A DNA stretch of 64,000 nt from Methanomassiliicoccaceae archaeon (GTDB lineage Archaea; Thermoplasmatota; Thermoplasmata; Methanomassiliicoccales; Methanomassiliicoccaceae): the NCBI GenBank assembly GCA_040776945.1, contig JAXGZN010000001.1, positions 1 to 64,000 on the forward strand. The letters are read 5' to 3'. The position numbers were made by a program, and so were the translations under genes. This document shows, in pieces, positions 138 through 47,993 of this stretch. The notes beneath the pieces are model-generated. The model saw only the letters and a program-made list of their open reading frames with translations, searched no databases and was not told where the DNA came from. Each line of letters opens with the position of its first letter. Position 1 is the first letter of the stretch.

Positions 138-143
138 AAGTAG

Positions 144-3058
<2,915 letters not shown>

Positions 3059-3543
3059 TGACAGTGTCGGCTTAACAGTCAATCGAATTGCGTATGATCT
3101 TAACTCTTCCAAATTTTACATTTTCTATACTCCAGCGTGAGCTGGAAAAATTCAAGGTGGATGGCATAAATCAGCGTAAGCTATGTTTCTTCACCATGGT
3201 TTTTGTAGATTTCTGGGAGGCCATAGGGCTTTCCTGAAAGTAGGTTATGTTCTTGAACGGCCTTTTCGAGATGGCCGGGCACATCGATCAGCGTAAGCTT
3301 TGAGCACGGGCGGCCAGATGATCGTTGGCTCTTATCTTCCAATTGCCGAGCATCCCGGGGATCGGCTCGACCCTGAATCTTGGCGAATCGCTGCACGTTC
3401 TGCGGCACAGGCCCGTACGGACGAGGAAGAGTGCGGCCATATGGCGATTATCGCGATCAAAGGGCCGCAGAATGCGCTTCTCGAAGGTCATCCCTAGGCC
3501 CGTCAGTAACCTAATTATCGTCACCTGTGGCAATTATTACTCG

Positions 3544-4548: not shown

Positions 4549-4632
4549 CTTCCGATCGCACCGTCGGAATGCCGGTGCGGGCAGCAGGTCCGCATGTCCC
4601 TTGAGCACTCGTCCTACAGAGGGCGCGAGGAC

Positions 4633-5199
4633 CTATTCATCTCCAACGCCGTAGCGTTCCTTGATCTGCCTGATCATCTTGTCCAGCTCATGATAGTTCC
4701 GGCGGCCGAGGTCCAAGACCTTGCCGCTCGACAGTTCGAGCCTGAGGTTCGTTGGCATCCTCTCCATCTTTCCGTCGACGCTGACCTCGATCCTGCGGAC
4801 AATGAGCTTGGATATGTCCTCCTTCGGTATGAAACCAGGAAATCCCCGGACCTCCTCAAGGAATGACGTGTGCACCTCGATCCCCTTGGACCACACCTTC
4901 ACCGGATAGCTCATCCTGCGCCCGCGCGGACTGATGACCTCGGTGACGTACACCATCAACACCAGGGCTATGAACAGGAAGATGACGTTCGCCAAGCTGG
5001 ACATCGTCCCTAGGTCCGTTGAGGTCGCCAAGTGGACAATGTAGATGAACAGCCCGATCCCCGCAGCCCTGCCGAGGTTCTCAAAGATGCCCCATCTCTT
5101 GCCGGCCAGGATCTTCCTGGGCCTCAGCTTCTTCGGTATAGTCTCGGTGAACAGCAGTTCGCCTTTGGTCTCGTCGACCGGCCTTGGTCCTTTGGCCAT
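4633..5199 (-). CDS. Hypothetical membrane protein (2 TM helices)
   Basis: ORF with host-like codon usage and two hydrophobic segments. Start ATG 5199 chosen. Confidence 0.65.
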   Translation of the reverse strand: MAKGPRPVDETKGELLFTETIPKKLRPRKILAGKRWGIFENLGRAAGIGLFIYIVHLATSTDLGTMSSLANVIFLFIALVLMVYVTEVISPRGRRMSYPVKVWSKGIEVHTSFLEEVRGFPGFIPKEDISKLIVRRIEVSVDGKMERMPTNLRLELSSGKVLDLGRRNYHELDKMIRQIKERYGVGDE

Positions 5200-8374: not shown

Positions 8375-8384
8375 AGTGATCGGC

Positions 8385-10344: not shown

Positions 10345-10420
10345 TAATATGCAATATTATATATATATTATCAATATAATAGAAATAAATAATTATTATA
10401 TACTTATTGAACTATTTCAT
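10345..10420 (+). promoter_or_regulatory. Extremely AT-rich region upstream of cas3; probable cas operon promoter
   Basis: TATTATATATATATTATCAATATAATAGAAATAAATAATTATTATATA directly before the GTG start. Several TATA-like boxes. Confidence 0.55.
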
Positions 10421-10432
10421 TCTGGGGATCTT

Positions 10433-12826: not shown

Positions 12827-14964
12827 GCGGTGTACGGGAAATGGTAAAACTAGAAGGATGCTCGCTTCAGCCTCTTGGTTCTTACTTAAAAGCACTGGGC
12901 ATATTCAGGATCATCGCGGAACAGGTCGACCCGGAAGCCGAGCTTTTTTTCAATGGAAATCGCTTCTGCATTAGATCGCTACTGAATGATGAGAACCTTC
13001 TCTCCTTTCTTGAGGAAAAATACCAACCTACGCCTATTATGGCGCCGTGGAACGGAGGCAGCGGTTTCTATCCAAAGGACAACTTAACCGCCATCAATTG
13101 GATACGAGAGAGCAAAGGAGATAGGTTGGCGAATTATCGCGAAGGGCTTCAAATCGCCACTCAACTCATGGCGTCTTGGAGCGACAAGCCTAAAAAGGAT
13201 GATAAGGAAATGTTGTTGCAGGCCTGCAGAGCTTCTTTGCCTGATAAGACTGTGGAATGGCTTGACGCAGCGTTTGTGCTTGGCACCGAAAGTCCTCGGT
13301 ACCCTCCTTTACTGGGAACAGGCGGGAATGATGGTAGATTGGAGTTTACCAATAATTTTATGCAAAGGTTGACCGACATAATGCATGATGATGGTAGACC
13401 GACCGTTCCTTCGATCGATTGGCTTCGTTCATCATTGATGGGAGATATCAGGCCGGGTCTATTAAAAGGACAGCCGATTGGCCAGTTCGATCCTGCTGGA
13501 GCAGGTGGGGCAAATATTTCATCAGGCTTCGAAGGGGATTCCCTGGTCAACCCCTGGGATTACATCTTGATGATCGAGGGATCTCTTTTCTTCGCCTCGG
13601 GCGTTGTTAAAAGGGGAGAGATCAACCTCCGCGGGGAGCTCTCCTTTCCATTCAGCGTTAGATCGTCGGGCGTTGGATATGGCTCAGCGTCCCGTTCTGA
13701 CGAGAGTTCCGCGAGGGCAGAGATATGGTTGCCTATTTGGAGCACCCCGTCGCAGTACCCAGAACTGCGGGCCCTTTTCTCAGAAGGACGTTCAAATGTA
13801 GAAAGGAGGCGATCTGCTGATGGTGTGGACTTCGCCCGAGCTGTCGCCACCCTGGGAGTTGACAGGGGCATCGATTCCTTCCAGAGGTACGGATTCCTCG
13901 AGAGGAATGGAAGGGCCTTCTTCGCCGTTCCATTGGGGAGACATCACGTGAGAAGGAACCCTCAAGCCGACCTTTTATCCGGCATCGACGATTGGCTATC
14001 AAGCTTCAGGTCTAAAGCATCTGGGGATCAAACGCCTGCCTCAATAAAGAGGGCCTTAAATGGGCTTGACAGGATGCTATTGCGGCTATGCTCTGAAGAG
14101 AGCCCACGGACCGTTCAGTCAATGCTCATTGCATTAGGGGCATGCGAAAGAGCCATGTGTAAGAGCATCAAATGGGCTAAAGACCAGCATCTGCGGCCGG
14201 TCCCAGCCCTGCCGCCAGAATGGTTCGATAAGGGAGATGATGGCTCTGCTGAGTTCAGAATAGCGGCGGCCATAGCCCTGATTTCTGCTGACCTCTCGAA
14301 GACACCGACCTTTACCAAACAACCGATGAGAGCAACGGTCGAGCCAGTCGATGTCGTACGACGGTCCAGCGTAACGAGGGTGAACTGGGCAGATGAAGGG
14401 AGATTGCTGGATATCGGGGGCGGGCCTATCGATCTTCTTAACGGCCTCATGAAGGCTCGCATCAAGGAACACCTAAAGGCAGGAGCGGAGGGATATGTGG
14501 ACAGTTCCCCGATTAAAGCTAGCCTTACCGATCTTACCGCATTTCTCGACGGCAGTCTGGATGAGGGCCGAATCATAGATCTGTTCTGGGGTTGTGTGCT
14601 CCTTGACCCATTCGATGGATACAAGATGACCATTGACCGGCCACCGCTCGGGGATTATCCCGGCGCCGCATATTCTCTCCTTAAGCTCTGCCATGTCCGT
14701 CCCGCCCGGCAGAGCAAGGAGTTTGGTAAGGACCGGGTCCCACTGGTGCCTGAGATACATCATCGTGCCTCTTGCGGAAACATGATGGCCAGTACTAGAA
14801 TGGCAAGCCGACGGCTACGCGGCAGTGGGCTAGCGCCGAAGATCGATGAATTCGCTCTTTCTCCCAAACAGAGCGCTCGTGTAGCCGCGTCATTGCTCAT
14901 CCCTTTGGATGAGCATGGTGTTCGGATCATATCTGATAAAATATTGTTGGAGATGAAAGAATGA
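12823..14964 (+). CDS. csx17: Type I-G large subunit Csx17 (Cas8g/Cas8u2)
   Basis: L.GC...PLGSYLKALG, PTPIMAPWNGGSGFY, PPLLGTGGNDGRLEFTNNFM, NPWDYILMIEG. ATGA overlap with cas3. Confidence 0.9.
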   Translation: MSGVREMVKLEGCSLQPLGSYLKALGIFRIIAEQVDPEAELFFNGNRFCIRSLLNDENLLSFLEEKYQPTPIMAPWNGGSGFYPKDNLTAINWIRESKGDRLANYREGLQIATQLMASWSDKPKKDDKEMLLQACRASLPDKTVEWLDAAFVLGTESPRYPPLLGTGGNDGRLEFTNNFMQRLTDIMHDDGRPTVPSIDWLRSSLMGDIRPGLLKGQPIGQFDPAGAGGANISSGFEGDSLVNPWDYILMIEGSLFFASGVVKRGEINLRGELSFPFSVRSSGVGYGSASRSDESSARAEIWLPIWSTPSQYPELRALFSEGRSNVERRRSADGVDFARAVATLGVDRGIDSFQRYGFLERNGRAFFAVPLGRHHVRRNPQADLLSGIDDWLSSFRSKASGDQTPASIKRALNGLDRMLLRLCSEESPRTVQSMLIALGACERAMCKSIKWAKDQHLRPVPALPPEWFDKGDDGSAEFRIAAAIALISADLSKTPTFTKQPMRATVEPVDVVRRSSVTRVNWADEGRLLDIGGGPIDLLNGLMKARIKEHLKAGAEGYVDSSPIKASLTDLTAFLDGSLDEGRIIDLFWGCVLLDPFDGYKMTIDRPPLGDYPGAAYSLLKLCHVRPARQSKEFGKDRVPLVPEIHHRASCGNMMASTRMASRRLRGSGLAPKIDEFALSPKQSARVAASLLIPLDEHGVRIISDKILLEMKE

Positions 14965-15899
14965 GCTATGATAAGCTGGCAAATGAGAACAGACTGTTGA
15001 TCGAAGCCCGGCTGCGTCCGATCCAAGGAACAAGGTTCCAGCCTACTGGATTTCCGAACCTGGGAGCCGCGGACTATGTGACCCATGACGGCACACAGAT
15101 GTTATTGGTTGAATCGAGCCAGAGCATGGCCAATCGTTTGGAGAAGGTCTGCTGGGACGATTCCAGGAACGAGTTGGTCCCGGCGCTAAGTGGGATACCA
15201 TATATTCGGGTCAGAGATAAGGCGGGGAATGTTTTGACCACCTCGATCGAGGAGGCCCATCGCATAAACAGCCCGTATATCCTTGAGGGCAAGGACAAGC
15301 AGTTCTTTGAACGATTGAAGAAGGACCTTGAGGCGGGCGAAAAAGGAAAGCCGGATTACCGACTTCTGGCAAAGGTTCTCCTTCATTATGATCCGGGTTC
15401 TCTTATACATGGCGTATTCTTGGCAAAGAAAGAACTGGCCAATGGTAGACTGAGATTGGCTAGGTGCCTATCTTCCTTCGTGGAAGCAAGGAACGTGACC
15501 GTGGCATCAAGCGGCGGGGTCAAGAAGGACGATCTGGATGTAAAGGGAGACGCATCTAAGGGCTTTGGACATGTGCCGTTCTCAAGAGAGGAGTATACAG
15601 GAGAGATAATCGCTTACTTCAACCTAGACCTCGCCCAGATTCGAGGATATGGTTTGGGCAAGAGGGTTGAGGAGCTTCTAGTGGCCATGTCCCAATACAA
15701 GATAAGAAAACTGCTCTCCGAGGGCCTAAGGTTCCGAACGGCCTGCGACCTAGAGCTAGTAGATATGGAGGTGAAAAGGCCGTCTGGATATTCCCTGCCG
15801 GGCCTTCATGAACTCGAAGCCTCTCTGCCGAGCCTTATCGCCAACGTCAAGGATAGGTTCGCTAACCCGCCTGTAACTGAGGTCGTCTACGAAGAGTGA
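14961..15899 (+). CDS. csb1: Type I-G Cas7 (Csb1)
   Basis: RFQPTGFP.LG, LLVESSQSMANRLE, EAHRINSPYI, LRFRTACDL. Confidence 0.92.
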   Translation: MSYDKLANENRLLIEARLRPIQGTRFQPTGFPNLGAADYVTHDGTQMLLVESSQSMANRLEKVCWDDSRNELVPALSGIPYIRVRDKAGNVLTTSIEEAHRINSPYILEGKDKQFFERLKKDLEAGEKGKPDYRLLAKVLLHYDPGSLIHGVFLAKKELANGRLRLARCLSSFVEARNVTVASSGGVKKDDLDVKGDASKGFGHVPFSREEYTGEIIAYFNLDLAQIRGYGLGKRVEELLVAMSQYKIRKLLSEGLRFRTACDLELVDMEVKRPSGYSLPGLHELEASLPSLIANVKDRFANPPVTEVVYEE

Positions 15900-15903
15900 T
15901 CCC

Positions 15904-17469
15904 ATGCTCGTCATCAAGATGGGCTTTCCAGGAGGTAGATATTATGCCACCCCTTGGGATAAACATGTCAATGAGGGCTTGGTCGAGTGGCCTCCCTCCC
16001 CTTGGCGGTTCCTAAGGGCCATTATCTCTACTTGGTACACCAAGGGCGACGGGGTCAGTTTCGAGGTCCTGCAGGCCCTTGTAGAGAGACTGGCGATCCC
16101 GCCCGAGTTCGTCCTGCCCCCTGCCACGCTGGCTTCGACCTGTCACTATATGCCCTCATATCGTTCCACTTTAGATGGGAAGACTGTCAACGTCTACGAT
16201 GCGTTCGCTCATATCGGTGATGGTGCGCTGTACATCATCTGGAACGATGTGAACTTGGACAACGAACAAAGACAGGGCCTTGATACTCTCATATCAAGGA
16301 TGGGGTATCTCGGGAGGTCGGAGTCATGGGTCGAGGGGGGCGTGGTCGATCTCGATATTGCTCCAAATACCAGACTGGTAGATGATGCTTCCACGACTGA
16401 AAGCGTTTCTCCCGCTCTGTGCTGCCTTACTCCCCTGGAATATCTGAGTTGGAGAGGCAATATGATATCCACTCTCTTGGCTCAGAGAGAGAAGGAAAAG
16501 AGAGCAAAGGCTGATGCATCAGGAAAGGGATTCAAAGGACTATCGGCCAAGGATAAAAAGGATGTTGAGGCCCTTGTTCCGGCCACATTGTTCGAGGCTC
16601 TCCTGGTGGATACATCTGTGATTAGAGGAGCAGGATGGAGCGGCCCGCCCGGAAGCAAATGGGTTGGTTATCGCCTTCCTGAGGGAGCATTCCTCGTTCG
16701 ACCATCTAGAAAGGTGATCTCAAGGGACCTTCCTACAGTCGCAAGGTACAAGGTCCGCTCCAAGGTCCCCTTCATGATATTCGATGCAGTATCCCTTGGA
16801 GAAATGGCCCATAATAGCCTGGTCCGCCTTACCAACGGTTCCCGGACCTTTACAGGATGCGATGAGGAAGGCCGTCCGCTAAAGGAAGACCATGCCATGA
16901 TTCTCTCACATGGCATTAGCTCGAAGATAAACGGAATGAGGATCTCTGACCTGACCATCTACAGCAAGAATGGCTTTACTCCAGAAGATGTGAAAGCCCT
17001 ACGGTCCCTGAGATATCTTAACTGGAACAAGGATGTGGAGGTTACTCTGATCGGTGTGGGCCAATCATCTACTTTCAGCTCAGAAGAGGGGATCATCGCT
17101 CGGTCATCGCGCTGGGTCTCTGTTACGCCTTTTGTGCCTCCGAGATGTCCCAAGTTCACAAAGGGCGGCGTCCCGAAGAAGGACGATAACGGATTGCATA
17201 TCGGGTCTGCCGAACATGAGCTCCGCCGCCTGCTGGCAGAGAACAACTACCCGCAGGTCGAGCACATTGCATCCATACCTCGTGCTACGGTCGGGGGTTC
17301 TAGCCGAAGCTGGCTTTCGTTTCGAAGGCGGAGAAGTTCATCTGACCGAGGGCCACTAAATGAAGCAGGCTTCGGTTTTGAGGTACAATTTGTAGAGCCG
17401 ATAGATGGACCTCTTGCTCTTGGGTATGGGTGTCATTTCGGTCTGGGGCTTTTCCGTCCATTGAGGTGA
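15904..17469 (+). CDS. csb2: Type I-G Cas5/Cas6 fusion (Csb2)
   Basis: GRYYATPW...EWPPSPWR, YLGRSESWV, WVSVTPF and the C-terminal Gly-rich GPLALGYGCHFGLGLF. Confidence 0.92.
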   Translation: MLVIKMGFPGGRYYATPWDKHVNEGLVEWPPSPWRFLRAIISTWYTKGDGVSFEVLQALVERLAIPPEFVLPPATLASTCHYMPSYRSTLDGKTVNVYDAFAHIGDGALYIIWNDVNLDNEQRQGLDTLISRMGYLGRSESWVEGGVVDLDIAPNTRLVDDASTTESVSPALCCLTPLEYLSWRGNMISTLLAQREKEKRAKADASGKGFKGLSAKDKKDVEALVPATLFEALLVDTSVIRGAGWSGPPGSKWVGYRLPEGAFLVRPSRKVISRDLPTVARYKVRSKVPFMIFDAVSLGEMAHNSLVRLTNGSRTFTGCDEEGRPLKEDHAMILSHGISSKINGMRISDLTIYSKNGFTPEDVKALRSLRYLNWNKDVEVTLIGVGQSSTFSSEEGIIARSSRWVSVTPFVPPRCPKFTKGGVPKKDDNGLHIGSAEHELRRLLAENNYPQVEHIASIPRATVGGSSRSWLSFRRRRSSSDRGPLNEAGFGFEVQFVEPIDGPLALGYGCHFGLGLFRPLR

Positions 17470-17471
17470 GC

Positions 17472-19121
17472 ATGCCGGAAGAAGCATCTATTGAGCTCAT
17501 ACCTGCTAGGATGCTGAACGAGTTCGTCTACTGCCCTAGACTTTTTCACATTGAGTATGTTCAAGGCGATTTTGTAGACAGCGCAGATACCATTTCTGGC
17601 CGCTGGGACCACCGACGGGTGGATAAACCATCGGAAGAACTGGACGATGATGGTGGCTTCGGTAAGATCAAGGCGGTAACGATGTCCAGCGAAAGGTTTG
17701 GCCTCATCGCTAAGATGGACCTGGTTGAGTTGCAGGAAGGTCAAGTACTTCCTGTCGACTATAAACATGGTAAAAAGCCAGGCATCGAGGGGGGCGCGTG
17801 GCTCGCTGACAAGGTCCAACTTTGCGCCCAGGCCCTTGTGCTCCGAGAAAATGGATTCGACTGTAAGCAGGGTGCCATATATTATAAAGGTTCCAAGGAA
17901 CGTGTCTACATCGACATCTCCGACGAATTGATAGATAAGACACTTGATTTTGCTTCTCGGGCAAGAGAGGCCATTCATGGACCGCCTCCCAAACCCCTTG
18001 AGGACAGCCCCAAATGCGTAGGTTGCTCGCTTGCTGGCATTTGCCTTCCAGATGAGACCTCTCTCCTCGGAGAAAGCGAGAAAGATTTGGATGATCGCGT
18101 TAGGAGGCTTTACCCAGCAAGAGATGATGCCGCTCCTGCTTATGTGATCGAGCAGGGGGCCGTGGTGACAAAGAGTGGGGAAGAGCTTGTCATCAAGAAG
18201 AGCGGAGAGAAATTAGGCTCCATCAGATTGATGGAGCTTTCGCACCTATCCGTAATGGGCAATGTTCAGATAACCACTCAGACCGTCCATGAGCTCTGCG
18301 GAAGAGGAATACCGATCTGCTACCTCTCCACTGGTGGTTGGTTCTATGGGACCGCCCAAGGAATGGGCCACAAGAACGTTCAACTGCGCATCGCGCAATT
18401 TCGGAGGGCCGAGAATCCAGAGCGATCGCTGGAACTCGCACGGCGGTTTATTCAGGGCAAGATCAAGAACTGCCGGACCATGTTGCGCAGGAACAGCGAG
18501 CCGCCATCGGCCGCGGCCCTCGAAGTACTGGCCGATCTGATCCAAAAGGTCGGTGCTGCCATGGACCATGGGGAGTTGCTTGGTTTGGAGGGTTCGGCGT
18601 CCCGAGTGTACTTCTCTCACTTTCGGGACATGTTGTCCATAAAGGAAATGACCTTCGATATGACAACTCGCAATCGCCGGCCACCTAAGGACCCTGTGAA
18701 TGCTATGCTCTCCCTTGTCTATTCTATGCTTGCTAAGGATTGTACAGTGACCTTGCTCTCGGTCGGGTTCGATCCTCACTTGGGCTTTCTTCACCGTCCC
18801 CGATATGGCAAGCCTGCCCTGGCGCTCGACCTCATGGAAGAGTTCAGGCCGATCATTGGAGATTCGGTGGTCATAGGAGCGATAAATAACAGAGAGATCA
18901 CTGGGAACGATTTTGTTAAAGCAGGCAAAGCGGTAAGCTTGAGCGATAAGGGTAGGAGGACCCTAATTGCTGCTTACGAGCGAAGGATGGATACCCTTAT
19001 AAGACATCCCATTTTCGGCTATACCATAAGCTACCGAAGGACTCTCGAGGTCCAGGCTCGGTTGATGTCGAGGTTCGTGCTGGGAGAGATCAAAGACTAC
19101 GTACCGTTTTGCACGAGGTGA
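17472..19121 (+). CDS. cas1: Cas4-Cas1 fusion
   Basis: Cas4: EFVYCPR, PVDYKHG, QLCAQ, C..CSL...C. Cas1: LGLEG, RNRRPPKDPVNAMLS, LALDLMEEFRP. Confidence 0.95.
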   Translation: MPEEASIELIPARMLNEFVYCPRLFHIEYVQGDFVDSADTISGRWDHRRVDKPSEELDDDGGFGKIKAVTMSSERFGLIAKMDLVELQEGQVLPVDYKHGKKPGIEGGAWLADKVQLCAQALVLRENGFDCKQGAIYYKGSKERVYIDISDELIDKTLDFASRAREAIHGPPPKPLEDSPKCVGCSLAGICLPDETSLLGESEKDLDDRVRRLYPARDDAAPAYVIEQGAVVTKSGEELVIKKSGEKLGSIRLMELSHLSVMGNVQITTQTVHELCGRGIPICYLSTGGWFYGTAQGMGHKNVQLRIAQFRRAENPERSLELARRFIQGKIKNCRTMLRRNSEPPSAAALEVLADLIQKVGAAMDHGELLGLEGSASRVYFSHFRDMLSIKEMTFDMTTRNRRPPKDPVNAMLSLVYSMLAKDCTVTLLSVGFDPHLGFLHRPRYGKPALALDLMEEFRPIIGDSVVIGAINNREITGNDFVKAGKAVSLSDKGRRTLIAAYERRMDTLIRHPIFGYTISYRRTLEVQARLMSRFVLGEIKDYVPFCTR

Positions 19122-19416: not shown

Positions 19417-19737
19417 ATCGATTATAGGGACAGATGAAAAAGGCCCGGCGGCGGCAGGGATTGTCGAACTCATCCGTCTCTTACACGGAAAGCCCGCTTC
19501 GAGAGCTCCTGAGCTGAAACAATCACGGGAGGCTCTCGACTGACTAGGCGGTGTTTGCTGGACATCGACCTGATCAGATAGATAGTGAACGATGAGGCGA
19601 CAATAATCATGTTCAGATCGAGACCGCTCGAAAAGGACATATTAACTGAAAATGAATAAGGCGTTAGAAACGTTTACCCATTTATGATTCATGATCGGGT
19701 CCTGAAAACACCGCAAAATAAGGCCATATTTAAGGCC
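19417..19737 (+). promoter_or_regulatory. CRISPR leader
   Basis: Non-coding, AT-richer near the array. Inverted repeat TCGAGAGC (19499-19506) / GCTCTCGA (19532-19539) and a related CGCTCGAAAA at 19625. Confidence 0.8.
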
Positions 19738-22700
19738 GTTACCACGTTCAACGGAACGTGGACGAATTGAAGCGAGGGGTGCGACCCCGCGGAATCACCT
19801 TGGTTACCGTTCAACGGAACGCATGACGATTAACTTCAACTCGTTGCAGGCATCGTGTCCGTTACCACGTTCAACGGAACGTGGACGAATTGAAGCTTCT
19901 TCAAGCCCGATCACAGATTTTCGAGCACGGTTACCACGTTCAACGGAACGTGGACGAATTGAAGCTTATGACGCCGAAGAAGATGAGACGCCAAGATCCA
20001 GAGTTACCACGTTCAACGGAACGTGGACGAATTGAAGCGGATGGAGCCGGAGGACCGATTGTACGTCACGTTACCGTTCAACGGAACGTGGACGAATTGA
20101 AGCGCGCTGCGGAACGCCGAAGAAGGCCAAGGACGAGGGGTTACCACGTTCAACGGAACGTGGACGAATTGAAGCCTGATGCCGCTGGCAGACGGAAGCC
20201 GAGTTACGTTCAACGGAACGTGGACGAATTAAGCGCCCAACCCGAGTGGTCCCATCCGGTTACCACGTTCAACGGAACGTGGACGAATTGAAGCGGGGTG
20301 ACGGAGGGGACCATCGAGGACGGGGCGGTCGTGTTACCACGTTCAACGGAACGTGGACGAATTGAAGCTATTGCTCGGGCTACTGGACCGGGGTCGATTT
20401 TACCGGTTACCACGTTCAACGGAACGTGGACGAATTGAAGCTTGGTGAGCTTCGCCTTGGCTTGGGGGAACTCGTCGAGTGTTACCACGTTCAACGGAAC
20501 GTGGACGAATTGAAGCAACGCCCCCGAGCTGATGGAGCTCATCCTCATGATGGTTACCACGTTCAACGGAACGTGGACGAATTGAAGCATCTCACTGCCA
20601 GGCCTGATCTTGTAGCTCTCTTTTGTTACCACGTTCAACGGAACGTGGACGAATTGAAGCACGCCTTCCGGGGCGGTATCGGGGCGCTCGCCTCCTCGTT
20701 ACCACGTTCAACGGAACGTGGACGAATTGAAGCCCGATCCGACGCTCTCCGACTATAAATGCAATATTGGGTTACCACGTTCAACGGAACGTGGACGAAT
20801 TGAAGCAGCCGTGAGCTGCGCGTGCTGTCCCTTCAGCGCCTGTTACCACGTTCAACGGAACGTGGACGAATTGAAGCCAGTTCGGACGATTCCAGAGCAA
20901 GGACCGGGACTAGTTACCACGTTCAACGGAACGTGGACGAATTGAAGCGATACGATGGCGGATGCCCCGGTGATGACGACGAAGTTACCACGTTCAACGG
21001 AACGTGGACGAATTGAAGCGGTGGACCGGGGGCGGCCCTCCAGCGCCAGGTACATGTTACCACGTTCAACGGAACGTGGACGAATTGAAGCAGGCCGGTG
21101 GCGAGGACGGCGTTGTGCGCCTCGCGGAGTTACCACGTTCAACGGAACGTGGACGAATTGAAGCTCGGGCAGGGTCCGTTCATAGCTTGAGGCCAACCTG
21201 ACCGGTTACCACGTTCAACGGAACGTGGACGAATTGAAGCTTTATCCAGCTCCAAATGGTCATCGTCGGTCACCTCGTTACCACGTTCAACGGAACGTGG
21301 ACGAATTGAAGCCTTCGAGACGGGGAAGGGCATGATGGGGCACAACATGTTACCACGTTCAACGGAACGTGGACGAATTGAAGCATGGACGGGGCGAACC
21401 TCCCCGAGATCCTGTCAGGCGTTACCACGTTCAACGGAACGTGGACGAATTGAAGCGCGGCCGGCATTGTGTGCAGCGTGCTGATCGTCAAGTTACCACG
21501 TTCAACGGAACGTGGACGAATTGAAGCCAGGCGGCCATCGCCGCGTTGATTATCCCCTGGATCAGTTACCACGTTCAACGGAACGTGGACGAATTGAAGC
21601 CACGCCGCCCAGGCGAAGGTCGAGCAAGTCGGCCCGTTACCACGTTCAACGGAACGTGGACGAATTGAAGCGTCGAGGGGCGCGACGGATGAACGAGGAC
21701 GAGCTCAGTTACCACGTTCAACGGAACGTGGACGAATTGAAGCTAGAAGGCCCCCCGCCCGCCGCGCAGGTGCTTAAAGTGTTACCACGTTCAACGGAAC
21801 GTGGACGAATTGAAGCCTGAAGTTCCTGGCAATCCTCCATCGCCTCGTTTGCCAGTTACCACGTTCAACGGAACGTGGACGAATTGAAGCACCTTTGTCC
21901 ATTGCCAATTCAACGGTGGCTGGGAAAGGTTACCACGTTCAACGGAACGTGGACGAATTGAAGCCTGGGAATAGACCGGGAATCTATTGTTGAATTTGTC
22001 GAGTTACCACGTTCAACGGAACGTGGACGAATTGAAGCCTCTGTCAACATTGCCATCATGTAGTGCATGGTAAGGGTTACCACGTTCAACGGAACGTGGA
22101 CGAATTGAAGCAGTACCCCTTGAGCGCCCCGATCCTCGGGACAGGGGGGTTACCACGTTCAACGGAACGTGGACGAATTGAAGCTTCGGGAGCGCGTACC
22201 ATCCATCGCCCAGGACGTCCCGGTTACCACGTTCAACGGAACGTGGACGAATTGAAGCCGTACCCAGACCGTTGACGAACGCGATGCTCACCGAGTTACC
22301 ACGTTCAACGGAACGTGGACGAATTGAAGCTTCTTCATCTCTCGATCCTCTTCGTGAGTAGCCATGTTGTTACCACGTTCAACGGAACGTGGACGAATTG
22401 AAGCTTCCTCCCATTCGTCATCTTGCGTATTTTTCTTCACTGTTACCACGTTCAACGGAACGTGGACGAATTGAAGCTTTGTTTGTTTCTTTACATACTC
22501 CGCTGGAACTCGGGGGTTACCACGTTCAACGGAACGTGGACGAATTGAAGCGGGGATGGTCTCAGGGGGGCCAGGGCACTAAAGGCCGTTACCACGTTCA
22601 ACGGAACGTGGACGAATTGAAGCACGCTCTCCGTCGCCCCGGCGTACATCATGACCCAGGTTACCACGTTCAACGGAACGTGGACGAATTGAAGCCTCAC

Positions 22701-25700
22701 CGGCTCGGTGATGAACACCGGACCGTCAGCGGCCAGGTTACCACGTTCAACGGAACGTGGACGAATTGAAGCCTTCCCGCTTGGCCTCGTAAGCGGCCCT
22801 GGCCTGGCTGAGTTACCACGTTCAACGGAACGTGGACGAATTGAAGCCAGACCACCCCCGGAGACAGGGCCCGACCGAAATCCCGTTACCACGTTCAACG
22901 GAACGTGGACGAATTGAAGCATTGTCATCGTATAAGCTTCTTGCACTGCCCTAACAGGTTACCACGTTCAACGGAACGTGGACGAATTGAAGCTTGGTGT
23001 AGCCGTCCACGCACTTCGGGCACCTCGCGTCGTTACCACGTTCAACGGAACGTGGACGAATTGAAGCATGGCGTTCCAGGCGGCCTCGAAGATGCCCTTG
23101 AGCGGTTACCACGTTCAACGGAACGTGGACGAATTGAAGCTTCTCTCATAATGTGAAACCTCCTTCGATGAACGCCTGTTACCACGTTCAACGGAACGTG
23201 GACGAATTGAAGCAGGACCTCCGCTGGCACGAAGTTCGTCCCGGCGATGGATGGTTACCACGTTCAACGGAACGTGGACGAATTGAAGCTAAACCAATAA
23301 TCCACGTCCTTTTGCAGGTAAAAGGTTCGTTACCACGTTCAACGGAACGTGGACGAATTGAAGCTGGTGATAACCTCCCCCTCCATCGACACGCGCAACG
23401 GTTACCACGTTCAACGGAACGTGGACGAATTGAAGCGGAGCGGCCAGCAGGGAGCGGGCGAACAGACCTGGAGGTTACCACGTTCAACGGAACGTGGACG
23501 AATTGAAGCATCGCATTGCTGGACTTCCCAGGTCTTCGATTCAAGTTACCACGTTCAACGGAACGTGGACGAATTGAAGCATCACAGCCGCCGCCCCCCC
23601 AGCGCCTCGATCAGCTGTTACCACGTTCAACGGAACGTGGACGAATTGAAGCTTCAAGCTCCAAGATTCCTTCGAGAAAATCTCGCTGGTTACCACGTTC
23701 AACGGAACGTGGACGAATTGAAGCTGATGGATGAAGCGGACCTCGGCCGGCAGCAGGCGGGTTACCACGTTCAACGGAACGTGGACGAATTGAAGCCTAA
23801 AGACCTCCCTATATATTTCGCTGAAATCTACTGTTACCACGTTCAACGGAACGTGGACGAATTGAAGCCAGGCAAATAATATTGCCAGTATAAAAGCGGA
23901 TAAGACGTTACCACGTTCAACGGAACGTGGACGAATTGAAGCGTCGGAAATGGCGACGGGTCGTCCATAACATACTCCGGTTACCACGTTCAACGGAACG
24001 TGGACGAATTGAAGCGTTTCATGTATATTCGTCAGGTCCAACGCTCTAGCACGTTACCACGTTCAACGGAACGTGGACGAATTGAAGCAACCCACATACC
24101 TGTAGGTATATTGTTCACACTCTTTTGTTACCACGTTCAACGGAACGTGGACGAATTGAAGCATAAAGGAGGCGATCTTGGTTGATATTCATCATTTTGC
24201 GTTACCACGTTCAACGGAACGTGGACGAATTGAAGCTATGTAGGAATGAAATGATACAAGCGACAAGACCAAAGTTACCACGTTCAACGGAACGTGGACG
24301 AATTGAAGCCGGACCGAACGAGAGATACCACGCCAGGCGGTATTGCCGTTACCACGTTCAACGGAACGTGGACGAATTGAAGCGAGGAATTCATCAGCTT
24401 CTCGGCCTTATCAAGCCAGTAGTTACCACGTTCAACGGAACGTGGACGAATTGAAGCGTCTAAGAGATATTATGCATTGACGCAATATTTCAGTTACCAC
24501 GTTCAACGGAACGTGGACGAATTGAAGCCTGTCGGGCGAGTGAGTTGTTACGAAAAGGAAAAAATAGTTACCACGTTCAACGGAACGTGGACGAATTGAA
24601 GCTAGCCCTGGTTCGAGCCGGTGGTGTCCCATTCCTGACCGGTTACCACGTTCAACGGAACGTGGACGAATTGAAGCCGAGTTAATTTATTCTTCGACTT
24701 CACTGGAGCATTAGGTTACCACGTTCAACGGAACGTGGACGAATTGAAGCTGATGGGTCGAAAACTCCCGTACCAGACGATTGATTTGTTACCACGTTCA
24801 ACGGAACGTGGACGAATTGAAGCGTGTCGCCCCTGCCGCGACCAGGATACAATCTCCACGTTACCACGTTCAACGGAACGTGGACGAATTGAAGCATCGT
24901 TTTTTAAGGGGTGTTTAGGCATGTCTGGCTCGTTACCACGTTCAACGGAACGTGGACGAATTGAAGCTTGGCCTCCGGGTATTCATCGAGGATGTCCAGG
25001 ACGTTACCACGTTCAACGGAACGTGGACGAATTGAAGCGGCTTTACGGTATGCCAATATACCAGCCCATTTTTATAGTTACCACGTTCAACGGAACGTGG
25101 ACGAATTGAAGCAATCTCAGGGCTGTGGATGAAAATGTTGGATATGGCGTTACCACGTTCAACGGAACGTGGACGAATTGAAGCATTGACACAGAAATTC
25201 TCTATTCCCAGAACATTGTTGTTACCACGTTCAACGGAACGTGGACGAATTGAAGCGACGAGCGGATCGACGCGATGAAGCGCCGCCTCGGGTTACCACG
25301 TTCAACGGAACGTGGACGAATTGAAGCGAGCTGGAAGGCCAAGAGGAAATGCTGGAAAAGCTGTTACCACGTTCAACGGAACGTGGACGAATTGAAGCCG
25401 TCAGATCGTCGGTGGAACACCAGCTCATAACTTGAGTTACCACGTTCAACGGAACGTGGACGAATTGAAGCATCGCGCTCTTGGGCATCGCTTACGTCGG
25501 TTATGCCGTTACCACGTTCAACGGAACGTGGACGAATTGAAGCTTTTTCAAAACTAGCGCCGTGGACCCAGACGATAGTAAGGTTACCACGTTCAACGGA
25601 ACGTGGACGAATTGAAGCGACGATCCCTGATTGTTACGGTATATGTATTGACTGGGTTACCACGTTCAACGGAACGTGGACGAATTGAAGCTGCTGGAAC

Positions 25701-27651
25701 ACCACGCGGTCGGCGGCTGGCGTGTTGGGTTACCACGTTCAACGGAACGTGGACGAATTGAAGCATGACCGACCCATACTGCCACGCCGACGTCCACCTG
25801 GTTACCACGTTCAACGGAACGTGGACGAATTGAAGCAACATAGCGACGGCATAGAACAACATGAACATCACAGTTACCACGTTCAACGGAACGTGGACGA
25901 ATTGAAGCTCATAAGCGGTAGATAATGGGTTGGCCCCTGTATAACGTTACCACGTTCAACGGAACGTGGACGAATTGAAGCCCGGCGAAGCCCTTGAGGA
26001 TGGAGGAGCGGCACACCAGTTACCACGTTCAACGGAACGTGGACGAATTGAAGCTCGCCTGATATGGTAGTATTTTAGTGCAGACGCCATGTTACCACGT
26101 TCAACGGAACGTGGACGAATTGAAGCTTTTCGAACGACTGTAAATCTGAACCTACAGACTCGTGTTACCACGTTCAACGGAACGTGGACGAATTGAAGCC
26201 TCATTGTGAAGCACTAGACGCTGGTCCTCATAATAGGTTACCACGTTCAACGGAACGTGGACGAATTGAAGCTCGGACGGGACCGGAACGGGAGCCTGCG
26301 GTGGGGGGTTACCACGTTCAACGGAACGTGGACGAATTGAAGCTCGGTATCTCCGGAAAGAGGCTATCGAGCGCTCTCCTAGTTACCACGTTCAACGGAA
26401 CGTGGACGAATTGAAGCTGCGACCGCAGCTCCGCCAACCATTCCTCTGACCTCGTTACCACGTTCAACGGAACGTGGACGAATTGAAGCGACTTCATGGG
26501 ACAGAGGATTGCACCCTTCGGTTGGTTACCACGTTCAACGGAACGTGGACGAATTGAAGCTTGATCTCTCTGTTCCCGCAGGTAGGGCATCGGTCCCGTT
26601 ACCACGTTCAACGGAACGTGGACGAATTGAAGCAATCTTACCTTGCCCCCGCCCATAAGCTGGATGGCTAGTTACCACGTTCAACGGAACGTGGACGAAT
26701 TGAAGCCTTCTCTCTCGCCGAGCGCTCGCCGGCGCTCATGGCCGTTACCACGTTCAACGGAACGTGGACGAATTGAAGCAAATATGGCCTTGTTTCGGGC
26801 ATACATTACAGCCAATGTTACCACGTTCAACGGAACGTGGACGAATTGAAGCCAACATCGCCAGGTATGTCTTGAGAGGCGTGAGCATGTTACCACGTTC
26901 AACGGAACGTGGACGAATTGAAGCTTATCACCTCAGGACGCATTGGGCTGTATGACCTGCGTTACCACGTTCAACGGAACGTGGACGAATTGAAGCATGA
27001 TGTAGTCCTGGATGATGCTCATGGCCGCGTTGATGGTTACCACGTTCAACGGAACGTGGACGAATTGAAGCCCCTCCTAGCTGGGACTTGTAGACCTCCA
27101 TGTGATGTTACCACGTTCAACGGAACGTGGACGAATTGAAGCCTTTTAGGCTTACCTAATTAGGCTTACCTAAATCATAGTTACCACGTTCAACGGAACG
27201 TGGACGAATTGAAGCTTTTCTGATATTAGTAACGGGAAGCGAATGAAAACCGGGTTACCACGTTCAACGGAACGTGGACGAATTGAAGCGGTATTTCCTG
27301 ATGAGGAATGACAAGACCAATAGGAGTTACCACGTTCAACGGAACGTGGACGAATTGAAGCGCTGTGGATGGACGGTTATCTCACCATGTTGGACTCGTT
27401 ACCACGTTCAACGGAACGTGGACGAATTGAAGCTCTTTGCTCAGGTCACTTCCTCCTCTTCTTTCCGGGTTACCACGTTCAACGGAACGTGGACGAATTG
27501 AAGCAATGCAGACGCCATAGTTACAATAATTGCAACCTAAGGTTACCACGTTCAACGGAACGTGGACGAATTGAAGCCAGCTCTGGGTGCTCAACGACGT
27601 GGTTGACCTGCCGGCGTTACCACGTTCAACGGAACGTGGACGAATTGAAAC
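19738..27651 (+). CRISPR. CRISPR array, ~110 repeats of GTTACCACGTTCAACGGAACGTGGACGAATTGAAGC (36 bp), spacers mostly 34-41 bp
   Basis: Direct reading and manual count. Internal hairpin CCACGTTC-aacg-GAACGTGG, 3' ATTGAAGC handle. The last canonical repeat (27616-27651) ends GAAAC. Confidence 0.99.
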
Positions 27652-27810
27652 TTGAAGCAACCGGAGCAAGGCCTGATGCGCCGTTGTTTCAAAGAAAATA
27701 ACATCACCAAACCCAATAGGACGTGGACATATGGGACTGAGGAACACGGACACGGGCGGGTACACCGCTATCCCATTGCCACATTAATCGGATGCAGGTG
27801 AAGTGAGACC
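27652..27810 (+). CRISPR. Cryptic degenerate tail of the array: two atypical repeats (27703-27738, 27775-27810) with alaS-derived spacers
   Basis: Ungapped identity to the consensus repeat is 21/36 and 19/36. They start exactly 72 bp apart and enclose a 36-bp spacer. Confidence 0.8.
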
Positions 27811-27887
27811 TGATGTAATGACATAGAATACAAGGTGGATTCAACAAATCAAAACAATTAAATGAATCGCCATGTTACTCACCCAGC

Positions 27888-30572
27888 ATGTCCGAGTTCG
27901 ACCTTTCATTTTTCAAGGATAATAATTTCATACGTCATGTCTGCCCCAAGTGCGGCCGGGCGTTCTGGTCCCAGGGAGACTGGGAGACATGCGGTGAGCC
28001 TCCCTGCGAAGAATACACCTTCATCGGCCATTCCCCAATGACCAAGCCGATGAGCGTGCATGAAATGAGAGAAGCGTATCTTTCATTTTTCGAGTCCAAT
28101 GGTCATGGCCGCGTACGCCGCTATCCCATTGTTGCGCGATGGAGAGATGATGTCTTCTTCGTGCAAGCCAGCATCTATGATTTTCAACCATGGGTGATTT
28201 CTGAAGTTGTCGAACCCCCCCATAATCCTCTCGTCATCTCTCAGACATGCGTACGATTTAACGACATCGACAACGTCGGGAAGACTGGCCGCCATTTCAC
28301 TTTTTTTGAAATGTGCGCACATCATGTCTTTAACAAGCCTGGCCATGAGATTTATTTCAAGGACGGAACCGTCGAGCTCTGTCATCAGCTACTGACCGAG
28401 CGCCTTGGAGTAGACCCTAAAAGGATCAGGTATATCGAGGAGTGGTGGGAGGGAGGAGGTAACTCTGGACCATGTGTCGAGGTCATTCTCGAGGGAGTCG
28501 AGATCGCCACGCTAGTGTTCATGCAATATCGCGAAACCCCTGAGGGGCGTGTGTCCATGGACATGAAGGTAGTGGACACCGGCTATGGCCTTGAGAGACT
28601 GACCTGGGTCTCCCAGGCCACGCCCTCAGCCTACGATGCGATCTTCGGCCCGGTGGTCCGAGACTTGAAGGACCGGTTGGGGATCGAGACCAACGACCGC
28701 ATAATGGAACAATATAGCAAGATCGCCGGCGCGATGAACATGAAGACCGCCGCCGATGTACGCCTGCTGAGAGAACGGACCGCCGAGCGAATCGGCATAT
28801 CGTACGACGAGCTCATGCGCAACGTCGCGCCTCTCGAAGATATATATGTGGTCTGCGACCACTCCCGCGCGCTCGCCTTCATGCTCAATGACGGCGTCGT
28901 TCCGTCCAACGTCCGAGAGGGCTACTTCGCCCGCATGCTGGTGCGCAGGGCCCTCAGGTCGATGCGCTCTCTCGATCTCAAGATGCCGCTGGCCGACATC
29001 GTCGCCATGCAGATCGATTACTTCTCGCCGCACTTCCCCGAACTCGTGGAGAACCGCGAGGACATCATGTCCCTGGTCGAGGTCGAGGAGCAGCGCTACT
29101 ATGAGACGCTGGATCGCGGCCGCTCCATCGTCCAGCGCATGACCAAGGACCTGAAGGGCGCCCCCATCACCCTGGACATGCTCATCGAGCTGTACGACTC
29201 CCACGGCCTCAACCCAGAGATAGTCAAGGAGTTCTCCGATGTTCCGGTGGAGATCCCTGACAACTTCTACATGCAGGTCGCAAAGAGGCACGAGACCGCC
29301 AAGATGGCCGAGGACGAAGGGCCGAAGGACGAGGAATACCCACTGGACATGCCGGAGACGGTGATGTCCTACTATGATGACCCTGAGGTCATGGCCTTCG
29401 AGGCCGAGGTCGTAGCCGTCATCAACGGCGCGGTGGTGCTCGATCACACCTACTTCTATCCCGAGGGCGGCGGCCAGGAGGCGGACTACGGCACCATGGA
29501 CGGCCGCGAGGTCGTCAACGCGCAGAAGGTCCGCAACACCATCCTGCACTTCCTGGACGGCAAGCACGGCATCAAGGTGGGCGACCGCGTCACCTGCGCC
29601 ATCAACGAGGCGCGCCGCCGGCAGCTGATGCGCCACCACACCGCGGCCCACATCATCAACGGCTCCGCCCGCGACATGCTGGGCAACCACGTGTGGCAGT
29701 CAGGCGCGCACAAGAGCGTGGACGAGGCCCGCTTGGACATCACTCACTTCGAGAACCTGTCCGAAGAGCAGCGCGCCCAGCTGGAAAAGAGGTGCAACGA
29801 GGTCGTGCTCGAGGACCATCCTGTGGAGATCAAGTTCATGCGGCGCGACGAGGCCGAGGCCAAGTTCGGCTTCCGGCTGTACCAGGGCGGCGTCGTGCCG
29901 GGCAAGATCATCCGTGTGGTCAACACCACCGGGGTGGACGTGGAGGCGTGCGGGGGGCTGCATTGCGACCGCACCTCAAGGGTCGGGCCGATACGCATCC
30001 TGCGCACGAAGAGGATCCAGGACGGCGTGGTAAGGATCGAGTACTCGGCGGGCCTTGCGGCGGTCAGCGGGATGCAGTCGGACAAGGCATGCGTGGACCA
30101 ATTGGCAGACAAGATGAACGTCGGGCGGGAGGCGCTCCTTCCCGCGGCGGTGAAGCTGCTCAGCGAGGTCAAGGAGGACCGCAAGCGCATGGAGGCCATG
30201 GCCGCCAAGCTCAACCGGATCATGGCCGACAGTCTGCTGGACAAGGCCCCTCAAGTCGACGGAGCGAAGGCGGTGGTGTACCTGGCCGCCGAGGACGAGG
30301 ACCCTCAGGCCCTATCGCTCGCCTTGACCTCACGCCCCGGAGTCATTGCCGTCCTGGGCCTTGCGAACAAGAGCCCCAAGCTGTTCGTGTCCCGCTCTCA
30401 TGACGTAAATCTGGACTGCAGGCCAGTGCTCAAGGAGATCATGAAACTGGTCGGCGGCGGGGGCGGCGGAAAGCCGGACTTCGCGCAGGGAGGGGGCGGC
30501 GACCCGGAAAAGCTGCCTGCGGCAATGGACAGGGCGCTGGACATCATCAGGGCGGCAATGGCCAAGAAGTGA
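27888..30572 (+). CDS. alaS: Alanine--tRNA ligase (archaeal type)
   Basis: RYPIVARWRDD, ASIYDFQP, NPLVISQ.C.R..DIDNVG.TGRH, VDTGYGLER, DHSRAL, editing motif HHTAAH...CGGLH and C-Ala GGGGG. Confidence 0.98.
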   Translation: MSEFDLSFFKDNNFIRHVCPKCGRAFWSQGDWETCGEPPCEEYTFIGHSPMTKPMSVHEMREAYLSFFESNGHGRVRRYPIVARWRDDVFFVQASIYDFQPWVISEVVEPPHNPLVISQTCVRFNDIDNVGKTGRHFTFFEMCAHHVFNKPGHEIYFKDGTVELCHQLLTERLGVDPKRIRYIEEWWEGGGNSGPCVEVILEGVEIATLVFMQYRETPEGRVSMDMKVVDTGYGLERLTWVSQATPSAYDAIFGPVVRDLKDRLGIETNDRIMEQYSKIAGAMNMKTAADVRLLRERTAERIGISYDELMRNVAPLEDIYVVCDHSRALAFMLNDGVVPSNVREGYFARMLVRRALRSMRSLDLKMPLADIVAMQIDYFSPHFPELVENREDIMSLVEVEEQRYYETLDRGRSIVQRMTKDLKGAPITLDMLIELYDSHGLNPEIVKEFSDVPVEIPDNFYMQVAKRHETAKMAEDEGPKDEEYPLDMPETVMSYYDDPEVMAFEAEVVAVINGAVVLDHTYFYPEGGGQEADYGTMDGREVVNAQKVRNTILHFLDGKHGIKVGDRVTCAINEARRRQLMRHHTAAHIINGSARDMLGNHVWQSGAHKSVDEARLDITHFENLSEEQRAQLEKRCNEVVLEDHPVEIKFMRRDEAEAKFGFRLYQGGVVPGKIIRVVNTTGVDVEACGGLHCDRTSRVGPIRILRTKRIQDGVVRIEYSAGLAAVSGMQSDKACVDQLADKMNVGREALLPAAVKLLSEVKEDRKRMEAMAAKLNRIMADSLLDKAPQVDGAKAVVYLAAEDEDPQALSLALTSRPGVIAVLGLANKSPKLFVSRSHDVNLDCRPVLKEIMKLVGGGGGGKPDFAQGGGGDPEKLPAAMDRALDIIRAAMAKK

Positions 30573-47775: not shown

Positions 47776-47863
47776 GCCGATCCTCCGCGCTCAAGGCTTC
47801 GTTCTAGCTAGGGACGCAGCAACAGAAATGAATAAATAGGAGGTTCTCATCAGTGGTTTCGGT

Positions 47864-47982
47864 GTGACGGCCATAGCGGCGGGGATACACCCGGTCCCAT
47901 TCGAACCCGGCAGTTAAGCCCGCCTGCGTTCCACGCTGTACTGCGGTGCGCGAGCCCGCGGGAACCGTGGAACGCTGTCAGC
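47864..47982 (+). rRNA. rrf: 5S rRNA
   Basis: TGACGGCCATAGCGGCGGGGATACACCCGGTCCCATTCGAACCCGGCAGTTAAGCCCGCC...GGGAACC...GCTGTCA, followed by a T-rich tract. Confidence 0.95.
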
Positions 47983-47993
47983 CACTTTTCCTC

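Follow-up and report, generated by a model that had tools for sequence, protein, structure and literature searches.

Genetic architecture of the alaS locus

The window analyzed in this study, i.e., the whole stretch of 64,000 nucleotides (nt) that opens contig JAXGZN010000001.1 of a Methanomassiliicoccaceae archaeon (GenBank assembly GCA_040776945.1), harbors alaS, which encodes an archaeal-type alanyl-tRNA synthetase (AlaRS), in close proximity to a CRISPR array and its type I-G cas operon. The alaS gene is a mosaic in which an internal tract of ~0.86 kb (codons ~38 to 323, positions ~28000 to 28860) represents a divergent allele, and two spacers at the alaS-facing end of the array appear to have been copied from the genus-typical allele at sites inside that same tract.

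The alaS open reading frame (ORF; 27888 to 30572, plus strand) is free of stop codons and specifies 894 amino acids (aa). The domains PF01411, PF07973, and PF02272 are precomputed for protein P0002, which is 99% identical to the resident AlaRS (residues 1 to 325), and for other matches. A whole-genome search identified alaS as the sole full-length copy in the 2.17-Mb, two-contig genome, here termed G000, in which a paralog (C1:174113-175252) specifies a 400-aa product with 28% identity over residues 492 to 881; alaS is presumably essential because it is present as a single full-length copy. Between a thiamine pyrophosphate (TPP)-enzyme gene (8304 to 9983) and alaS lies an insert of ~18 kb with a GC content of ~52%, the genome being ~60% GC, and the 5-kb upstream and downstream flanks of alaS have GC contents of 0.50 and 0.61, respectively. 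Relatives are designated G001 to G021 and so forth, g1 denotes the genus of G000, and the alaS comparison set comprises 29 loci from 40 relatives. Class A refers to the genus-typical alaS allele and class B to the divergent allele of G000, G002 (same genus), and G019 (another genus). The principal features are as follows:

10349 to 19121, plus strand: type I-G (formerly I-U) cas operon, assigned by Pfam matches
~19500 to 19737: leader of the array, on the cas side
19738 to 27651, plus strand: CRISPR array with 108 copies of a 36-nt repeat and 107 spacers, its trailer directed towards alaS
27811 to 27998, plus strand: alaS promoter region and codons 1 to 37, genus-type and class A-like by alignment
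27999 to 28856, plus strand: class-B patch, codons ~38 to 323, holding the spacer-homologous sites 28092 to 28127 and 28185 to 28222
28857 to 30572, plus strand: 3′ two-thirds of alaS, codons 324 to 894, genus-typical, with 0.89 G+C at third codon positions

A localized GC3 dip in alaS

The G+C content at third codon positions (GC3) of alaS is 0.68 for codons 1 to 37, 0.54 for codons 38 to 200, 0.76 for codons 201 to 323, and 0.89 for codons 324 to 894, with the class-B patch at 0.64 overall. When scored in 40-codon windows, GC3 is 0.45 to 0.57 over codons 41 to 200 (~28008 to 28490), 0.72 to 0.85 over codons 200 to 320, and 0.88 to 1.00 from codon 321 (~28848) onwards. This profile bears out the first-pass annotation of this DNA, which described roughly half of the codons at 28060 to 28340 as ending in A or T and a gradual transition over ~28600 to 28850, beyond which nearly all codons end in G or C. 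The raised GC3 of codons 201 to 323 may reflect amelioration or a second tract.

The difference in GC3 between codons 321 onwards and codons 41 to 240 amounts to 0.317 in alaS, which places it fifth among the 524 non-overlapping ORFs of at least 400 aa in G000 (median, 0.012; 95th percentile, 0.12; 99th percentile, 0.24). The four ORFs ranked above it (C1:606638-608248, C2:211832-213718, C1:599273-600712, and C2:857045-858472) have N termini rich in Arg, Gly, and Pro and flanks of normal GC content, none being low in GC, and look like wrong-frame 5′ extensions. The alaS dip is real and is not a general property of the long genes of G000. Among relatives, the corresponding difference is 0.05, 0.02, 0.14, −0.03, −0.02, and 0.06 in six genomes with the TPP-enzyme gene directly upstream of alaS, compared to 0.32, 0.26, 0.15, 0.14, and 0.11 in the five genomes with a CRISPR context (G000, G015, G021, G019, and G009, respectively), a contrast that represents a trend and not a test because the genomes compared are kin. 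A comparable dip in these TPP-adjacent relatives, or in most long genes of the genome, would have told against the first-pass interpretation; neither was found. G002, whose contig ends 40 nt upstream of alaS, shows a dip of 0.29. In many relatives, GC3 dips mildly over the first 50 codons.

The alaS gene carries an internal class-B patch

The mosaic structure is carried by phylogenetic incongruence at the protein level. In the N-terminal tree, based on the first 322 alignment columns, G000, G002, and G019 group together (Shimodaira-Hasegawa-like approximate likelihood ratio test support of 96), and a separate clade with support of 99 unites the other six full-length g1 genomes with G015 and G021, without G000, G002, or G019. 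In the C-terminal tree, based on the remaining columns, G000 groups with G007, G001, and G002 (support of 95), and G019 groups with G021. Approximately unbiased (AU) tests, with groups chosen after the trees had been seen, reject either grouping on the opposite partition (P = 0.0005, 0.0008, and 5e-6). Sliding identity gives a concordant picture: across columns 240 to 320, G000 is 0.95 to 0.97 identical to G002 versus 0.60 to 0.72 to G007, and past column 320 its identity to G007 switches to 0.80 to 1.00.

The 3′ breakpoint was placed by the maximum chi-square method, with G007 and G019 as parents, at codons 321 to 326 (28848 to 28863); none of 500 permutations was as good. To the left of this breakpoint, 18 sites are A-like and 45 B-like, and to the right the counts are 42 and 6. 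The breakpoint and the shift in GC3 fall at one place. The 5′ switch to class B occurs at about codons 34 to 42. Codons 1 to 37 share nucleotide identities of 0.86, 0.84, and 0.79 with G002, G001, and G007, respectively, versus 0.66 with G019, and ~40 nt upstream of alaS align with G002, G007, and G001. Within the patch, the protein shares 0.92 of its residues with G002 and 0.87 with G019, versus 0.76 with both G001 and G007, with a nucleotide identity between G000 and G002 of only 0.79. Over codons 324 to 894, by comparison, amino acid identity is 0.92 to G007 and 0.89 to both G001 and G002, versus 0.76 to G019.

These results substantiate the mosaic proposed in the first-pass annotation, including its breakpoint at ~28850, and correct its outline. 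The low-GC3 segment is genuine, yet it does not extend to the start of the gene, the first ~37 codons lying outside it; the replacement is accordingly internal and not of the 5′ end, given that the promoter and codons 1 to 37 are genus-type; and the patch is a different natural allele (76% aa identity to class A versus 87 to 92% to class-B carriers), not a synonymously recoded version of the host gene.

The mosaic is not an assembly chimera, since the region from 27615/27620 to 29400, which spans the breakpoint, is covered with zero differences by contigs from four runs belonging to four studies (one run is possibly the source sample). The same mosaic architecture is present in P0002 and in P0003 to P0006, which derive from independent assemblies. 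Within a large protein collection, the class-B N terminus occurs in a G000-like setting (P0002), in a G002-like setting (P0003 to P0006), and joined to g5-like or other C termini (P0007 to P0012), the remaining proteins being no more than 80% identical to it. Among 80 genome loci, the only further class-B alaS genes were those of G002 and G019, and none was detected in metagenome contigs (best identity, 74%). Exchange of alaS N termini is also apparent elsewhere in the family: G002 carries an A-like block at alignment columns 40 to 100 inside its B region, the G015 N terminus is nested in a g1 subgroup (support of 96), and G021 and G019, although belonging to one genus, carry different alaS classes.

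Spacers at the trailer end derive from class-A alaS

The distance from the array end to alaS is 237 nt, and the units of interest are situated at and beyond the last regular repeat (27616 to 27651), which carries one change:

27578 to 27615, plus strand: sp107, the last regular spacer, apparently from class-A alaS codons 100 to 112; corresponding site, 28185 to 28222
27652 to 27702, plus strand: spacer-like stretch of 51 nt, resembling in reverse the FFEM-AHH motif of alaS at a score within that of shuffled sequences
27703 to 27738, plus strand: decayed CRISPR repeat, 21/36 identical to the consensus (of 1000 shuffled versions of the 236-nt trailer, 0.6% score as high)
27739 to 27774, plus strand: trail2, the oldest spacer, between decayed repeats, apparently from alaS codons 69 to 80; corresponding site, 28092 to 28127
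27775 to 27810, plus strand: possible further decayed repeat, 19/36 identical to the consensus and marginal (6.9% of shuffles reach 19)

As the leader is located on the cas side, and the altered last repeat is followed by a decayed one, it is the old end of the array that faces alaS. The sp107 spacer reads QLWVLNDVVDLP where class A reads QPWVLNGVVDPP. It matches class-A alleles at 29 to 31 of 38 positions (with the exception of G015 at 21 and G021 at 26) and class-B alleles at 21 to 24, the resident gene being at 21; its local alignment score is 42 versus a shuffle maximum of 27 (E = 0.02 per genome). The trail2 spacer reads EEHGHGRVHRYP, compared to EEHGHGRVRRYP in relatives and ESNGHGRVRRYP in the resident gene. 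Its identity is 30/36 to the class-A alleles of G001 and G021, 29/36 to G002, and 26/36 to the resident allele, with a blastx E value of 4e-6 and a score of 42 versus a shuffle maximum of 29. The protospacer-adjacent motif (PAM) of type I-U/I-G systems is TTN (PMC6547450). In each of the 17 alleles tabulated, the codon ahead of either source site is TTY, while only 3.7% of positions in class-A N termini are preceded by TTN. Judged by alignment and PAM, both spacers were copied from class-A alaS, and both source sites lie inside the patch.

The resident class-B sequence cannot be targeted, because it is mismatched at 17 of 38 and 10 of 36 positions; with identities of 21/38 and 26/36, these are not self-targeting spacers, and the view of the patch as a replaced, CRISPR-immune segment holds in this respect. 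Nor do the spacers have a near-exact counterpart among the sampled alleles, to which they reach only 79 to 83% identity. Patch and spacers alike are old: in the patch, synonymous sites are near saturation and G000 and G002 share only the limited nucleotide identity noted above, and the spacers are decayed, with changes present in no allele. Of the three protospacers that the first-pass annotation placed within the GC3 dip, two (28092 to 28127 and 28185 to 28222) were recovered. The third was probably the match of 27652 to 27702, reversed, to ~28296 to 28330, which scores 25 against a shuffle maximum of 27 and was rejected.

Comparison of the 107 spacers with the resident alaS returned only chance words of 12 to 15 nt. 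The other 106 spacers gave nothing comparable in the 40 relatives' genomes, the matches there being a solo repeat in G007 and a single 27-nt match in G015. A tblastn search for alaS fragments upstream of alaS at 87 loci produced low-complexity noise and nine matches to reversed controls, and recovered only the G000 fragment. Within G000 itself, the other spacers yielded two matches of 31 to 34 nt: spacer 7 (20295 to 20332) matches C1:945770-945800 (90% over 31 nt), and a weak match at C2:453729-453762 overlaps spacer 10 and part of a repeat. These are possible further chromosome-derived spacers.

An independent replicate in a second genus

The G019 contig begins within a repeat, of which it retains the final 21 nt; this repeat shares its family with that of G015, whose locus is of type I-C by gene content (cas3, cas5d, csd1, cas7, cas4, and cas1). 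The 35-nt spacer that follows reads NDIDNVGRTGR in translation, in which the arginine marks class A, lysine being the residue in class B and in most other lineages. It is identical to G001 alaS at 33 of 35 positions (94%; E = 1e-8 per genome) and to G021 alaS at 31, compared to 22 for the class-B alaS of G019 itself. The source site follows a TTC codon; GAA, on the other strand, is the type I-C PAM. The spacer is followed by a decayed repeat, ~290 nt upstream of the class-B alaS. As read from this contig, G019 represents an independent replicate, in which an array of I-C type abuts a class-B alaS and bears a terminal anti-class-A spacer.

Arrays located further from alaS gave a different outcome. 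When the 124 inter-repeat segments of G015 (58), G009 (64), and G021 (2) were compared to the 29 alaS genes, only words of 13 to 17 nt were returned; the G015 and G009 arrays are 9 to 11 kb from alaS. Homology between the G000 trailer and the region upstream of G019 alaS was also considered and lacked significance, its score being equaled in 22 of 300 shuffles, and the MAFFT alignment of the two regions is consequently not evidence.

The TPP-alaS interval as a CRISPR hot spot

In seven relatives (G007, G001, G005, G004, G008, G011, and G003), alaS has the TPP-enzyme gene as its immediate upstream neighbor. CRISPR elements are present in this interval in G000 (I-G), G019 (I-C-type repeat), and G021 (I-E-like repeat, 430 nt upstream of alaS), and G009 and G015 carry cas1 and arrays there. 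The interval is a hot spot where CRISPR-Cas loci of several types came and went. G007, which has a class-A alaS (G007:C35), retains a solo I-G repeat ~175 to 210 nt before the gene (30/36 positions; 85% over 41 nt; E = 7e-4 per genome). Beyond this repeat, G007 aligns with the G000 trailer. An I-C-like solo repeat in reverse orientation was recognized by eye ~500 nt upstream of the same gene. The 1.4-kb and otherwise CRISPR-free TPP-alaS region of G007 holds relics of at least two CRISPR systems, and because the solo I-G repeat is retained, the I-G array predates the split of G000 and G007 or was once shared. Neither the I-G repeat nor the I-G Cas7 was found in G002 or G019, and no array was seen at the end of the contig encoding the G002 Cas1.

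Several observations pertain to this interval and to alaS across the family. Contigs of metagenome-assembled genomes (MAGs) end inside alaS, 40 to 1000 nt from it, or within the 3′-terminal part of the TPP-enzyme gene in G002, G003, G010, G013, G019, and G021, which suggests strain-level variation or repeats at the locus. In G015 (L038), a DDE transposase gene (3931 to 4767) separates alaS from the type I-C cas operon. The alaS frame of G011:C17 (L012/L039) and P0014 extends to 1114 to 1133 aa, with TPP_enzyme_C (PF02775) ahead of the AlaRS portion, an apparent read-through or fusion of the TPP-enzyme gene with alaS. No full-length archaeal-type AlaRS match was found in genera g3, g12, and g15 and most of family f7, where a frame of ~604 aa (e.g., G012:C1:762310-764100) gives piecewise matches at 24 to 41% identity; in f7, the N-terminal query matched 4 of 114 genomes at E ≤ 1e-30. 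This points to a different or shortened form of AlaRS in those lineages.

The type I-G system and other features of the window

The cas operon of G000 is composed of the following genes:

10349 to 12826, plus strand: Cas3, with DEAD (residues 61 to 239), Helicase_C/Cas3-like_C (306 to 403), and Cas3_HD (645 to 745) domains
12793 to 14964, plus strand: large ORF of 723 aa with no Pfam match
14961 to 15899, plus strand: GSU0053-family Cas7 (E = 2e-42)
15904 to 17469, plus strand: GSU0054-like protein, a weak match (20.8 bits versus a cutoff of 21 bits)
17430 to 19121, plus strand: Cas4-Cas1 fusion of 563 aa (Cas4, residues 28 to 206; Cas1, residues 238 to 517)

The helicase of Cas3 is thus N terminal and its HD domain C terminal. 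In Logan contigs of runs X2, X3, and X13, the leader is joined straight to the last repeat and trailer (27615), which we read as an assembler collapse of the repeats, array bins without coverage being uninformative; a short-array variant may also exist. Elsewhere in the window, the 23S rRNA (139 to 3063) and 5S rRNA (47863 to 47983) genes are 45 kb apart, with no 16S rRNA gene within the window. Unlinked rRNA genes are compatible with a Thermoplasmata-type genome.

CRISPR targeting as a possible driver of allelic replacement

We propose, with a probability of roughly 0.5, that CRISPR targeting of class-A alaS selected for cells whose stretch under attack had been converted to class B, the causal order being our own reconstruction from the end state. 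According to this model, the array beside alaS, in a Methanomassiliicoccus-like host, would have captured spacers from class-A alaS, either its own or that of a close relative. With an essential gene under attack, cells carrying a mismatched foreign allele in place of the matching tract would then have been favored. The internal tract would have been converted by homologous recombination, class B originating from a deeper branch of the family, and the genus' own sequence would remain in the promoter, in codons 1 to ~37, and in the final 571 codons. Sister lineages such as G007 may instead have lost the array, leaving a solo repeat. This reading is preferred because, within the arrays studied, alaS alone was sampled; because only the alaS-proximal (oldest) units of alaS-abutting arrays carry such spacers; because the pattern is seen in two genera and two subtypes; and because both genomes carry a non-matching allele over the sampled region, and the class-A sister lost its array. 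A precedent for the recombination step is available in Haloferax, where chromosome targeting by CRISPR is described as triggering homologous recombination biased to the targeting strain (10.1101/2025.06.18.660351).

A number of points weigh against this proposal. Only the end state is observed, and none of the causal steps. The source may equally have been foreign class-A DNA, since the best matches (31/38, 30/36, and 33/35) are not exact, and trail2 separates the classes poorly, as the class-B gene of G002 matches it at 29 of 36 positions. The AU-tested groups were, as stated, defined post hoc. The patch is common to G002, in which no I-G repeat or I-G Cas7 was found and whose contig ends just upstream of alaS; the link of the patch to this particular array is therefore uncheckable there. 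The solo I-G repeat beside the class-A gene of G007 shows either a past coexistence of array and class A or a regain of class A. Being the oldest units, these spacers were the first recorded here, which the model does not require. Finally, the location of both protospacers inside the patch, which covers 32% of the gene, is weak support, having a chance probability of about 0.1.

The main alternative, which we regard as less likely, is that alaS recombination and the capture of relatives' chromosomal DNA are unconnected results of gene flow, alaS being a recombination-prone gene at a variable locus and the patch not having been selected by CRISPR. Archaeal spacers that match other archaea in chromosomal and housekeeping genes are on record (PMC3285040 and PMC12612501), alaS N termini have repeatedly been exchanged in the family (as in G015, G021/G019, and G002), the MAG contig breaks at alaS and the TPP-enzyme gene suggest strain variation, and none of the spacers has an exact source. 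Weighing against this alternative, alaS is the sole gene matched, by the trailer-most units of alaS-abutting arrays alone and in two genera and two subtypes; the other 106 spacers match nothing comparable in the 40 relatives' genomes, and 0 of 124 spacers of more distant arrays match alaS. Both spacer-bearing genomes, moreover, have the non-matching class exactly over the sampled region.

A more speculative possibility, which we consider doubtful, is that arrays beside alaS act, via spacers against class A, as allele guards or as a natural gene-drive-like unit. Were this so, incoming DNA of CRISPR-free relatives would be destroyed before recombination across TPP-alaS could delete the CRISPR locus, and in a multi-copy genome gene conversion would be biased to the chromosome bearing the immune class-B patch along with the array. 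Such a role would account for the movement of the class-B patch between genera, the presence of class B beside two array subtypes (I-G in G000 and I-C type in G019), and the anti-class-A spacer at the alaS-proximal end of each array.

It is improbable that the 5′ part of a donor alaS hitch-hiked as the right homology arm of the low-GC CRISPR-Cas island in a double crossover, a scenario close to the cassette-borne replacement initially suggested. The ~52% GC island does end 237 nt from alaS, and the GC3 dip is larger in relatives with a CRISPR locus upstream, but ~190 nt of genus-type DNA (promoter and codons 1 to 37) intervene between array and patch, which leaves the foreign tract detached from the island. 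The left flank likewise speaks against such an event, since the TPP-enzyme gene exhibits no compositional or identity break and no mosaic. The I-G system, furthermore, was not found in the other class-B carriers G002 and G019, and class-A G007 keeps its relic I-G repeat at the same site; the suggestion of a cassette is not supported on these grounds. An origin without recombination, through codon or mRNA-structure selection, mutational bias beside AT-rich DNA, or chimeric assembly, has the mild first-50-codon dip of many relatives in its favor and can be set aside in view of the protein-level incongruence (AU P ≤ 0.0008 both ways), the sharp breakpoint, the onset of the dip after codon 37 and not at the start codon, and the identical sequence across the breakpoint in contigs of four studies.

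Should the proposed link between targeting and conversion be a causal one, CRISPR targeting would be able to bring about the replacement of alleles in core genes and shape their spread between species, and CRISPR loci would gain a way to protect their own chromosomal site.

Comparison with known systems

Mosaic aminoacyl-tRNA synthetase genes arise by horizontal transfer and intragenic recombination. The alaS gene of G000 resembles them, being an essential synthetase gene with segments of different ancestry, and differs from them in that the exchanged tract is bordered on one side by a CRISPR locus that appears to record the replaced allele. Self-targeting spacers were reportedly addressed by Stern et al. 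2010, and inter-species mating in Haloferax is said to have been the subject of work by Turgeman-Grott et al. 2019.

Spacers from relatives' chromosomal or housekeeping genes have been described in archaea by Brodt et al. 2011 (PMC3285040) and Sures et al. 2025 (PMC12612501). The spacers described here are similar in that their source appears to be a core gene of relatives and not a virus or plasmid, in an archaeon, with a proper PAM. Unlike the cases described there, the source here would be the other allele of the gene adjoining the array, the spacers are the oldest units, a resident foreign patch covers the sampled region, and the arrangement recurs in a second genus with another subtype. 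A thin literature search, which does not establish absence, returned no report of spacers against the other allele of an array-adjacent essential gene; the supplementary housekeeping lists of PMC3285040 lay outside its coverage and may hold similar cases.

Self-targeting spacers are resolved by loss of cas genes or arrays or by mutation of the target (PMC6990116). An essential-gene spacer accompanied by signs of resolution is likewise seen here, the array being lost in G007 and the target altered in G000. In contrast to those outcomes, ~0.86 kb has been replaced by a divergent natural allele and not point-mutated or deleted, and the G000 spacers are not self-targeting today. In polyploid Haloferax, Cas3-dependent chromosomal targeting was survived, the damage was repaired from a non-matching template, and the CRISPR-bearing genotype was favored (10.1101/2025.06.18.660351 and PMC7521656); those experiments are laboratory work on a type I-B system, whereas polyploidy and an active I-G system would have to be assumed for G000. 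Chromosomal-gene spacers are usually read as lethal accidents or as records of DNA exchange; here, the array and its essential neighbor keep both halves, namely a record of one allele and its foreign replacement.

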